Of a stretch of 64,000 nt of DNA, positions 53,001-55,515 are shown one piece after another; positions within the stretch are counted from its first letter, which is position 1; every line of letters starts with the position of its first letter. The DNA comes from Candidatus Bathyarchaeota archaeon (GTDB lineage Archaea; Thermoproteota; Bathyarchaeia; Bathyarchaeales; Bathycorpusculaceae): positions 1,024,001 through 1,088,000 of the forward strand of contig CAWFFH010000003.1 in NCBI GenBank assembly GCA_963815095.1, in the 5' to 3' direction. Both the position numbers and the translations under genes were made by a program. Under the pieces are notes generated by a model. That model saw only the letters and a list, made by a program, of their open reading frames with translations. It did not search any database and was not told the DNA's origin.

Positions 53001-53687
53001 TTAATTTAGAGTTACTTTCCAAGTCTTTTTTAATCTAACTAAGAGTGCAACTGATAGTGTGAAGATGAATAGGGGTAAAATCATTAACCAAGAAAACTCG
53101 GGAACTGTAGGTGTTGGGTTTGGTGTGGGTGAGGTTGAAGTGGAAGTTTCTGGTATGGTTATTGTATGGGTGTTGCTCCAATCACTTGTATTCACTGCAA
53201 TTACAGGATAGTCATTTGGGTCTATAATGTATGGTATTGGTGCAACAAAAGGAGCGGTGAAATTTGAATATCCATTGATTGCACGAATTTGCATATCGAG
53301 TAGATGACTATTTGAGCTGCCTAATATTTCGTAATAACTGTTGAGTGGGACAATTGTTCTTGTGACGCCAGTAGTGCCTGTTTCAATGATGTATTGACCA
53401 TTCTTTGTTGGGTCAGGTTCGGGATGAATCCAGTTTGTTGATTCATGCCATTTATACCTAAAATCAAAAAAAATCAAAGGGTAATCATGACCATTATCGA
53501 TAACATATTGATTTGAAATTACAATTTCCAGACCACCACCTACTACATAATCTACGATTCTAAGAGTGAATCCGGGAGTAGATAGTTTAGGTATTGTCTG
53601 AGCACTTGCAGATTCAACGATTATTAGGTTTGAACCTGCTAAGATAACTACAAGAAGTAACGAGAACCCCTTGCTAATGCCACCCAT
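53001..53687 (-). CDS. Secreted protein with PEF-CTERM sorting signal
   Basis: Signal peptide; Thr/Pro linker, VPEF, TM, basic tail. Confidence 0.8.
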   Translation of the reverse strand: MGGISKGFSLLLVVILAGSNLIIVESASAQTIPKLSTPGFTLRIVDYVVGGGLEIVISNQYVIDNGHDYPLIFFDFRYKWHESTNWIHPEPDPTKNGQYIIETGTTGVTRTIVPLNSYYEILGSSNSHLLDMQIRAINGYSNFTAPFVAPIPYIIDPNDYPVIAVNTSDWSNTHTITIPETSTSTSPTPNPTPTVPEFSWLMILPLFIFTLSVALLVRLKKTWKVTLN

Positions 53688-53706
53688 ATTTTACTCTTAG
53701 GATTAC

Positions 53707-53770
53707 TTTGCAATAAAAGACTTCTCGTAAAGCTCTCTTGAATAAGCCCAGTCAAAGTTTCTTGACTAAG
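53707..53770 (-). repeat. TAGTCAAGAAA element, copy 5 (inverted, bipartite)
   Basis: Minus strand CTTAGTCAAGAAACTTTGAC (20/20 identical to copy 1) then TTATTCAAGAGAGCTTTACGAGAAGTCTTTTATTGCAAA. Confidence 0.85.
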
Positions 53771-54084
53771 CTATCCAGTGGCTTTTCAGGTAAATCTGCA
53801 GAAGCAGCCTCATCCAAGCCATAATCTATAGCATAGCGGGATCGATGACAGAACTATAGAAGTTGTTGTTGTTGCTGCTGCAACTGAATTCTGCACACCA
53901 GTTGCAACAACAATCAAACACAAACCCAAATTACCAAGTTTACTCTTAACTGAAACACAAATCAGACCCATAGAAGATAATGATGATGATAATGCAACCC
54001 AATTTGCAAACAACAGTATCATCAATCAAAGAATAAAAATTACAAAATTTTTTTGCAGATGCCTAAGTTTTGGTTAGCCCTATT

Positions 54085-54100
54085 CCGAAACGCTTATATT
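54085..54100 (+). promoter_or_regulatory. BRE/TATA-like promoter of the aromatic operon leader
   Basis: CCGAAACGCTTATATT about 35 nt upstream of the leader ATG. Confidence 0.55.
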
Positions 54101-54135
54101 TTTTGGCATATGACTGTTTGAACAGGTTCGAAGCA

Positions 54136-54222
54136 ATGTCTATTGCTGAAAGCAAAAATGGTCTCGCAGGTTCACAGTTTCCTAGCTTCGACTACTACTT
54201 TTATTATTACCATTTTCCTTAG
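54136..54222 (+). CDS. Putative Tyr/Phe leader peptide MSIAESKNGLAGSQFPSFDYYFYYYHFP
   Basis: 9 of the last 14 residues are Tyr or Phe; lies directly upstream of the aromatic amino acid operon. Confidence 0.8.
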   Translation: MSIAESKNGLAGSQFPSFDYYFYYYHFP

Positions 54223-54260
54223 GCCCAGAACTGAAAAATTTTTTGGGAGCGGTTCTGGGC
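54223..54260 (+). promoter_or_regulatory. Attenuator-like hairpin enclosing a T6 tract
   Basis: GCCCAGAACTG pairs with CGGTTCTGGGC (11 bp, one G-U); loop AAAAATTTTTTGGGAG. Confidence 0.7.
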
Positions 54261-54279
54261 GAAACAAGGGTGTACCAAC

Positions 54280-55515
54280 ATGCAAAGTAACAAAAAAATA
54301 GTTGTAAAATTCGGTGGCTCTAGCCTCGCTGACCATGAAAGACTCCTTAAAGCGGTTGTTGCCGTAGTTAATGAAGCTAAAAAAGGCACCAAAATCGCCG
54401 TTGTAGTTTCCGCCATGGGCAAAACCACCGATGTTCTCATGTCCACAGCCAAAAACACATCCAACGGCAAACTTGAAAAACACGAATTAGACGACATCCT
54501 CTCGATGGGTGAACGCACAAGCGTCCGCATATTCTCCGCTGCCTTGAGAAGCAACGGGGCAAACTCCTGTTACTTTGACCCCATCGACAACAACTGGCCC
54601 ATAATTACCGACGCCTTATTCCAAAACGCTAACCCACTTCTAAAAGAATGCGAAAAAAGCATCAGAGAATGTATCTTGCCAATCGTAGAAAAAGGCACCA
54701 TACCCGTCATAGCAGGGTTCGTGGGCAAAACCAAAGACGGCAAAATCACCACGCTTGGCAGAGGAGGAAGCGACACCACAGCATTCATATTAGCAGAATC
54801 CTTAGGCGCCGACCAAGTTGTACTAGTAACCGACGCAGATGGAATTATGTCCGGTGACCCAAAAATCATTGTAAACCCCCAAAGACTCAAAGAAATCGAT
54901 GTTAACACACTCGTGGGTTTAGCAGATTCAGGCGCCAAATTCATCCACAGCAAAGCCTTAAAATACAAGCCAAAAAACATCGATGTCAAAGTCATCAGCA
55001 ACACCCAGAGCGATTTGAGCAGAGAAGGAACCTTAATCACAGGAGCATTAGCTTCGGAACTGGACGCAGAAATAGCGCATCCAACCCCAGTCGCGGAAAT
55101 AACTGTGATTGGAAACGGCATATCAGCAAACCCACAAGTTCTCACGGAAATGGTGGAAAAAGTAAAAGAAAACTCCACCTTACTGGGTATGTCAATGAAC
55201 ACTAACTCGGTAATCCTCTATGTTCCTCAAGAAAAAAACATCGAAACTCTCCTAAATCAAATCCACACGTTAACAATCAGTAACAAAGAAACCATAGCGA
55301 TGGCCGTCAAAAAAGACCTTGTTTTCCTCAAAACCAGCGGAGTGGGACTCGAAGAAACACACGGCATAATCGGCAAAATCAGCGAAGACCTACGAGTCAA
55401 CGGCATAAACATATCAGGCATATTAACTATAACGTCAAGTATCCTGTTGTTTGTAGATTGGAATGAGAAAGAAAAAGCATTAAAGTTAATTAAAAACTCA
55501 CTAAAAACACGTTAA
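54280..55515 (+). CDS. lysC: Second aspartate kinase, heading the aromatic operon
   Basis: VKFGGSS, SAMGKTTD, GRGGSDTTA, ACT-like C-terminus. Confidence 0.9.
   Translation: MQSNKKIVVKFGGSSLADHERLLKAVVAVVNEAKKGTKIAVVVSAMGKTTDVLMSTAKNTSNGKLEKHELDDILSMGERTSVRIFSAALRSNGANSCYFDPIDNNWPIITDALFQNANPLLKECEKSIRECILPIVEKGTIPVIAGFVGKTKDGKITTLGRGGSDTTAFILAESLGADQVVLVTDADGIMSGDPKIIVNPQRLKEIDVNTLVGLADSGAKFIHSKALKYKPKNIDVKVISNTQSDLSREGTLITGALASELDAEIAHPTPVAEITVIGNGISANPQVLTEMVEKVKENSTLLGMSMNTNSVILYVPQEKNIETLLNQIHTLTISNKETIAMAVKKDLVFLKTSGVGLEETHGIIGKISEDLRVNGINISGILTITSSILLFVDWNEKEKALKLIKNSLKTR

Follow-up and report, generated by a model that had tools for sequence, protein, structure and literature searches.

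A Tyr/Phe-rich leader peptide and an RNA hairpin adjoining its stop codon probably place an aromatic amino acid (aro) operon of a Bathyarchaeia archaeon under ribosome-mediated, Tyr/Phe-responsive control. The leader lies on the + strand at positions 54085-54279 of a 64,000-nucleotide (nt) stretch of contig CAWFFH010000003.1 (Candidatus Bathyarchaeota archaeon, assembly GCA_963815095.1, positions 1,024,001 to 1,088,000), which in its full length is called the window below. A sequence-only reading of the window had listed a B recognition element (BRE) with a TATA box, a 28-codon open reading frame (ORF) that includes 5 Tyr and 4 Phe but lacks Trp, an 11-bp hairpin with A5 and T6 tracts, and a Shine-Dalgarno (SD) sequence, and all of these elements were found where it had put them. 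Its suggestion that such a leader may regulate the aro operon gains strong support from conservation of the leader in the genus and family, from recurrence of similar leaders in other lineages, and from the hairpin that adjoins the leader stop codon.

Anatomy of the leader

The upstream ORF (uORF) encoding the leader peptide spans 54136-54222 and consists of 28 sense codons and a TAG stop codon (54220-54222). The start at ATG 54136 assigned in the sequence-only reading is right as read from the sequence. The peptide, MSIAESKNGLAGSQFPSFDYYFYYYHFP, contains 5 Tyr, 4 Phe and 0 Trp; all 5 Tyr and 3 of the Phe are encoded within its last 11 codons. An SD-like AGGT (54124-54127, +) precedes the uORF. 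The 16S rRNA of the window's own genome ends in ...GGAUCACCUCCU, with GGAGGUGAUCC as its complement, and both this AGGT and the GGGTG of the first operon gene (SD AAGGGTG, 54266-54272, +, assigned by sequence, alignment and anti-SD match) match the complement of this 16S tail. The distance from GGT to ATG is 8 nt in both cases (ATG 54136 for the uORF; GGT 54269-54271 and ATG 54280 for the operon gene). Since the AGGT matches the anti-SD of the genome at the spacing of the main gene, it is a plausible ribosome binding site for the uORF. Further upstream, a BRE/TATA-like element (CCGAAACGCTTATATTTTTT, made up of CCGAAA, CGC and TTATATTTTTT) was read from the sequence at 54085-54105 (+), and alignment showed it to be near-invariant in 62/62 leaders of the family. 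Judged by the archaeal promoter consensus, this element would be the promoter, with a transcription start site expected near 54124, ~26 nt past the TATA centre and ~12 nt before the uORF.

The aromatic codon run F-D-Y-Y-F-Y-Y-Y-H-F (54187-54216, +) is framed by two helices, P1 and P2, which ViennaRNA predicted in the window and which were recovered as consensus helices by RNAalifold. The 5′ strand of P1 (54128-54134, columns at least 90% conserved) lies in the 5′ leader inside the motif GGTTCGAAGC (54125-54134), which is conserved in the family alignment, and pairs with GCTTCGA (54185-54191), the Ser-Phe-Asp codons immediately before the Tyr run. P2 (54223-54260) is a hairpin of 11 pairs, including one G-U, with arms at 54223-54233 and 54250-54260; its 5′ arm begins on the first base past the stop codon, and its 16-nt loop (54234-54249) holds A5 at 54234-54238 and T6 at 54239-54244. 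P1 and P2 together leave ~30 nt unpaired, approximately one ribosome footprint, holding YYFYYYHFP and the stop codon and mostly filled by the aromatic codon run.

The invariant motif GGTTCGAAGC contains GGTTCGAA, which resembles the T-arm consensus of tRNA; no tRNA-like fold was seen, and the likeness had no dedicated follow-up.

Conservation of the leader in the genus and family

As a background for the leader we took, from the window's own genome (2.69 Mb, 41.7% G+C), the 2176 intergenic small ORFs (sORFs) that have an ATG start and a long ORF no more than 250 nt downstream. The leader ranked 2nd of 2176 for single-residue enrichment (Tyr 5 of 6, binomial 1.9e-7), and 6 of the 2176, the leader included, had at least 5 aromatic residues among the last 10 and ended 30-100 nt before a gene. 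The P2 hairpin motif occurred a single time in the genome. By these sequence counts, the combination of leader and hairpin is more than chance. A second aromatic sORF, on contig C4, was rejected as a further leader, being without a hairpin and followed by an unrelated gene, and a crude genome-wide scan for other cognate-codon leaders returned none that was convincing among its top candidates.

The first operon gene encodes an aspartate-kinase-like (AK-like) protein, orthologues of which were present in 24/24 genomes of the same genus at 76-94% identity. An ATG-started uORF ending in an aromatic run was found at 27/27 orthologous loci (L001-L027), spanning roughly -144 to -57 relative to the gene, and was absent from 3/3 loci (L028-L030) that carry a 35-39% paralogue in another context. 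In the set of closest loci, the uORF was present at 43/43 evaluable loci. To be counted, a locus needed an intact gene start and sufficient DNA upstream of it, which excluded five matches that were partial and one locus where the flank was 23 nt long. This set came from metagenome-assembled genomes labelled Bathyarchaeota/Bathyarchaeia, including Bathy-6 and Candidatus Bathycorpusculum, together with a few other archaeal labels and two weak bacterial matches.

When 62 unique family leaders were aligned, the BRE/TATA element, GGTTCGAAGC, the ATG, AGCTTCGA, the Tyr/Phe codons, the stop codon, GCCCAGAAC, GTTCTGGGC and GGGTG were near-invariant, and the ~14 N-terminal codons of the uORF were scrambled. 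Analysis of 65 unique leaders gave a uORF length of 23-29 codons and 6-9 aromatic residues among the last 12 in 65/65; mean pairwise identity was 0.20 for residues 2-13 versus 0.37 for the last 12. Both synonymous codons were used for Tyr (TAT 186, TAC 107) and for Phe (TTT 142, TTC 124), and stop codons occurred in the +1 and +2 frames of 27/65 and 58/65 leaders, respectively. Because length and aromatic C-terminus are kept while both synonymous codons are used and the N-terminus drifts, selection, as read from this pattern, is on the open frame and on the identity of the aromatic codons and not on a specific peptide.

Recurrence in other lineages

The upstream DNA of AK orthologues was collected from 40 further Bathyarchaeia genomes and from 20 genomes obtained by a search of the phylum (17 of other classes and 3 Bathyarchaeia of family f17). 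A fixed rule was applied, under which a leader has at least 5 F/Y/W among its last 10 residues and ends 20-110 nt before the gene. Such leaders were detected at 34/59 evaluable loci of other genera, families and classes versus 6/2176 sORFs of the window's own genome, a contrast somewhat flattered because GTG and TTG starts were allowed for the loci and ATG only for the background. Tyr/Phe-rich uORFs with synonymous variation, which the sequence-only reading had proposed to look for in related genomes, are thus present among the 65 unique family leaders, and leaders rich in aromatic residues recur at these 34/59 loci.

The Bathyarchaeia contributed 25/42 of these positives, comprising f1 (10/10), f7 (3/3), f30 (3/3), f27 (3/3), f14 (2/2) and f32, f19, f34 and f37 (1/1 each), and were negative in f26 (0/6), f35 (0/5), f11 (0/2, with 4 of 10 residues aromatic), f15 (0/1) and f17 (0/3). 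The other classes of the phylum contributed 9/17, with positives in f58 (3/3), f62 (2/2), f47 (1/4) and f66, f44 and f53 (1/1 each), and none in f52 (0/3), f71 (0/1) and f48 (0/1). The leader peptides of these lineages resemble one another in composition and not in sequence (...FFDFFYYYFYFE, ...NPYYYYYYYCFF, ...FGYFYFYYFGP, ...FGYFYFYYFK, ...FYGCFYYYFFKN, ...FGFFYGFYFYFYFGP and MAYFFFSY), and one of them (L113) contains seven consecutive Tyr. The last aromatic codon lies 1-3 codons before the stop in all lineages. Since genes for an aldolase, 3-dehydroquinate synthase II (DHQS II) and 3-dehydroquinate dehydratase (DHQase) follow the AK gene in 9/9 lineages checked, the leader, by gene context, is one that accompanies the aro operon in 15 or more families.

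Conserved sORFs of other types occupy the same site, ~60-175 nt upstream of the AK gene, in f26 (L097-L098; MGDxLFGDGVY...) and f35 (L105-L108; GGHIYGD... or MGGHLYW...).

Structure of the leader RNA

The whole 181-nt region was not unusually stable (z -0.45); the 57-nt spacer alone gave -20.8 kcal/mol (z -4.0 versus shuffles). The largest predicted stem-loop of the spacer begins 1-5 nt past the leader stop in 29/29 lineages, with arm sequences that are wholly different between families, and in every lineage the SD lies 3-13 nt beyond the hairpin. Stem-loops with at least 10 pairs and a start no more than 5 nt past the stop were found in 27/29 lineages versus 12.6 expected from shuffled spacers, a comparison that is not a clean probability as the lineages are related. 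For the 62 family leaders, the only helices that RNAalifold returned were P1, of 7 bp, and P2, of 9 bp, with few broken pairs. A P1-like helix elsewhere links the start of the uORF to the start of the aromatic run, reaching 15-17 perfect pairs in L089-L091; outside the family, support for P1 was moderate (mean z -1.16, 7/22 below -2).

The loop of P2 contains a run of at least 5 T in 44/62 family leaders and of at least 4 T in 55/62, and the T6 of the window was reached by 0/500 shuffles. A T-run after the hairpin was seen only in some other lineages, for example L095 (T6) and L113 (T5). A consensus scan of the + strand from 53600 to 54600 found no bacterial-type terminator. The leaders of f58 and f62 (L122-L126) all end in ...FGP, and in them GGTCCC, TAA and GGGGACC make up a hairpin of 6 bp whose loop contains the stop codon. 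This small hairpin is predicted to compete with the larger one past the stop, a classical alternative-pairing layout without counterpart in the window's family. Alternative partners of the P2 arms in the window were sought by eye (GGTTC with AGAAC of the 5′ arm; CAGTTC in the uORF) and discarded, as they give at most 5-6 bp and are not general.

Proposed mechanism

A ribosome would load at the SD-like AGGT and ATG 54136 and translate the 28-codon leader. With charged tRNA-Tyr or tRNA-Phe scarce, it would stall in the unpaired run between P1 and P2 and leave P2 free to fold; with good supply, it would reach the stop codon, where its footprint would cover the 5′ arm and hold P2 open at least briefly. 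Given the established size of ribosome footprints, a ribosome whose A site holds the stop codon would have to unpair P2 at its first bases, and one stalled in the main Tyr run would not. Because the 5′ arm begins on the base after the stop, the position of the ribosome would thus decide whether P2 folds, as anatomy and footprint together suggest.

If the sensor is accepted, a transcriptional read-out by premature termination is the one we favour for the window's family, at somewhat less than even chances; a translational read-out is a serious candidate of only slightly lower standing, and other read-outs, such as mRNA stability, take what is left. In the transcriptional version, an open P2 would leave the T6 tract and the 3′ arm single-stranded, and RNA polymerase, uncoupled past the leader stop, would terminate at the U-tract or beyond it, probably with the help of FttA/aCPSF1, while a folded P2 would let transcription proceed into the AK-like gene. 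PMC13681488 reports that archaeal RNA polymerase terminates at oligo(dT) and that FttA favours U-rich nascent RNA. Models in which a closely following ribosome aids the polymerase, or in which P2 and a U-run act as a bacterial terminator, were discarded, as they have the wrong sign for a biosynthetic operon. The most far-reaching proposition is that of an old leader-peptide attenuator with a wide spread in the Thermoproteota, where it would occur in Bathyarchaeia and in six or more families of other classes. It would be the first amino-acid-sensing one described in Archaea, and in it a single ribosome-gated hairpin adjoining the leader stop would shield nascent RNA from U-tract/FttA-dependent termination after uncoupling; taken as a whole, we regard it as doubtful.

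A number of observations weigh against the leader-peptide reading or its transcriptional version. Double changes were observed at 2/16 pairs of P1 and P2 in the family alignment, and the variation was mostly of the G-U compatible kind. Covariation is weak within the family because P1 and P2 hardly vary in either arm, and for this reason the support for P2 comes mainly from the comparison between families. As to the covarying stem that the sequence-only reading had proposed to look for in relatives, a hairpin of differing sequence is present past the stop in 29/29 lineages, and doubly changed pairs within the family are few. Runs of at least 5 T occur in only 7/29 lineages, and the run is missing or shorter than 4 T in 7/62 family leaders. 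Because T-runs are sparse across lineages and absent or short in some family leaders, the proposed U-tract read-out cannot be universal; masking by a ribosome at the stop combined with termination at a loop U-tract, as first put forward, cannot, on the sequences compared, be the general mechanism. The polymerase also passes T6 before the 3′ arm exists, so P2 could not affect intrinsic termination there and could act only on a delayed, factor-type event, and under severe starvation the ribosome would already halt at the earliest codons of the aromatic run, where uncoupling might either favour or disfavour FttA. P2 is not followed by a U-tract (the next bases are GAAACAAGGG), and RNAalifold gave two independent helices and no mutually exclusive terminator/antiterminator pairing in the family. 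That the layout departs from the bacterial terminator/antiterminator scheme had been anticipated, and it does so in the window's family in lacking both an exclusive helix pair and a hairpin-plus-U terminator. The leader rule left 25/59 loci elsewhere without a leader, including all of f26 and f35. No cognate-codon uORF was found upstream of trpE, hisG-hisD or ilvC in the window's own genome when analogous leaders were looked for, as the sequence-only reading had proposed for His, Trp or Leu, so the device is not a general one in this organism. Finally, an RNA run (share of words 0.05) yielded a single 183-nt contig of a relative, which spans 54054-54219 including the promoter region and is uninformative on starts and ends.

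Alternative explanations

The same sensor could be read out in translation, as in cat/erm or in the mycobacterial poly-Cys leaders, with the leader ribosome remodelling P2 so that the SD and AUG of the AK-like gene are exposed only during stalling. The constant closeness of the SD to the hairpin fits this explanation, as does the position of the last aromatic codon, close enough to the 5′ arm for a stalled ribosome to extend to it; in f58 and f62, a ribosome three codons before the stop would remove the alternative hairpin, and the mycobacterial leaders operate in such a way according to bioRxiv 10.1101/834739. In the window, the minimum free energy fold also extends P2 by 5 bp through UCCUU (54216-54220, last leader codons) and the AAGGG of the SD, but across the aligned family leaders this pairing is not kept. 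For 22 lineages, the duplex that the final 11 codons and their stop could form with the AK initiation region was compared with cross-lineage pairs and with shuffles. The own pairs (-10.31 kcal/mol) were no stronger than either the cross-lineage ones (-10.37 kcal/mol) or the shuffles, the mean z being +0.25; both nulls are conservative because they keep the pyrimidine/purine bias. Similarly, a ribosome-sized mask slid along the leader in a thermodynamic model shifted the predicted accessibility of the initiation region by at most 0.03 on average. General sequestration of the SD by the leader 3′ end, as in the poly-Cys type, is thus supported neither by duplex energies nor by the mask scan, and an anti-SD at the P2 3′ end, noticed by eye in L095, L111 and L118, was not borne out by the folds. 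P1 would in addition block repeated loading on the uORF, which is more in keeping with a single co-transcriptional decision. Overall, we judge control by translational read-out to be rather unlikely.

Two other explanations do without amino acid sensing by the leader ribosome. The RNA itself might be the regulator and the ORF secondary, its UAY/UUY triplets being bound by a TRAP-like, Tyr/Phe-responsive protein or the RNA sensing a ligand or a tRNA. The almost invariant arms of P1 and P2 hint at constraint beyond pairing, and the aromatic run does amount to U/A-rich triplets kept single-stranded between two helices. However, 65/65 leaders open with an SD-like sequence and an ATG 23-29 codons before the homologous stop despite scrambled N-terminal codons, other families keep composition and neither sequence nor triplet order, and the Rfam covariance models had no match in 54085-54279, the best hits being chance matches of miRNA models upstream (E >= 0.14). 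An RNA regulator of this kind is therefore improbable in our view. We give slightly less credence still to a constitutive 5′ leader, in which the uORF and hairpins would only govern how stable the mRNA is or provide translational coupling to the first gene, without sensing an amino acid, or to a functional small protein. Folding of the hairpin places the uORF stop and the SD near each other in space and could serve termination-reinitiation, but such a leader would leave the Tyr/Phe composition in every lineage and the tie to aro operons unexplained, and a folded or targeted peptide is hard to square with extreme runs such as the seven Tyr of L113, where no sequence is conserved. Ribosome-mediated, Tyr/Phe-responsive control thus remains the preferred reading.

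Relation to known systems

Leader-peptide attenuation is the textbook proof of regulatory transcription-translation coupling in bacteria. By the sequence comparisons above, the sensor described here is one that resembles a bacterial leader-peptide attenuator, while the read-out differs in build. With pheL/pheA, trpL and hisL (compare PMC3082878), it shares a short ORF led by a ribosome binding site upstream of a biosynthetic operon, codons for the end product near the 3′ end, helices that flank the codon run, and regulatory codons that are kept as the remaining peptide drifts. It differs from them in occurring in Archaea, in having no exclusive terminator/antiterminator helices, in placing T6 inside the hairpin loop, and in a hairpin that adjoins the stop, so that the terminating rather than the stalled ribosome would cover P2. 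Because two defining features fail, the exclusive helix pair and the hairpin-plus-U terminator, we do not file the leader as a member of the bacterial type. A requirement of archaeal RNA polymerase for hairpins in termination is not known.

The tnaC/Rho system of E. coli is similar in that the stop codon adjoins RNA needed by a termination factor and a ribosome at the stop gates access to it. In the leader described here, by analogy, the factor would be FttA/aCPSF1, the logic would be biosynthetic (off at good supply), and hungry codons would replace a ligand-dependent arrest peptide. The mycobacterial poly-Cys sORFs, as described in bioRxiv 10.1101/834739, share cognate codons at the 3′ end, an operon of the same pathway, and a ribosome dwell time that is read out without a classical terminator/antiterminator pair. 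They are leaderless, and their Cys tract pairs with the downstream SD to control translation, whereas the present system has a short leader with an SD before the uORF, a separate hairpin between the uORF and the operon SD, and pairing not above background.

Full-text literature searches, with subscription journals and supplements outside their scope, retrieved no description of an archaeal amino-acid-sensing leader-peptide attenuator. Archaeal transcription-translation coupling and FttA-dependent polarity are established, as stated in PMC13681488. If the mechanism proposed above is true, leader-ORF polarity would be a regulated switch in archaea. The dozens of natural variants of one design in one pathway would offer a test case for how archaeal ribosomes signal to RNA polymerase, to termination factors or to downstream initiation, and the leader could serve in practice as a rule for annotating aro operons in uncultured Thermoproteota.

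The operon and its surroundings

The first operon gene (54280-55515, +) was identified with Pfam as an AK-like protein with AA_kinase and ACT domains, and the operon runs on to at least 63998 in the window. The order of Pfam assignments is AA_kinase+ACT, DeoC-type aldolase, DHQS II, DHQase I, shikimate dehydrogenase, GHMP kinase, 5-enolpyruvylshikimate-3-phosphate synthase, chorismate synthase, CM_2, aminotransferase and PDH_N (TyrA, prephenate dehydrogenase), the last of which is truncated by the window end. The chorismate mutase, aminotransferase and TyrA named in the sequence-only reading thus correspond to CM_2, aminotransferase and PDH_N. This domain content marks it as an aro operon of the archaeal kind that uses the aldolase and DHQS II.

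The aldolase/DHQS-II route is linked to aspartate semialdehyde. AK orthologues head AK(-ASD)-ADHS-DHQSII-DHQase operons in 9/9 other lineages checked, and in 7 of these 9 a gap of ~1.1 kb between AK and the aldolase gene holds another gene, which in the single lineage scanned encodes aspartate-semialdehyde dehydrogenase (ASD; L142:2429-3505, -). This arrangement suggests that the AK-like gene, and in some lineages ASD too, may be devoted to supplying the archaeal dehydroquinate route with aspartate semialdehyde.

Upstream of the promoter, a GTT/GCT-rich imperfect inverted repeat was noted at 53858-53962, where the Rfam miRNA/snoRNA matches were at chance level (E >= 0.14). A prephenate dehydratase gene lies outside the leader-controlled operon, in another gene string on contig C3 of the same genome (1088800-1089618, -), just beyond the window end.

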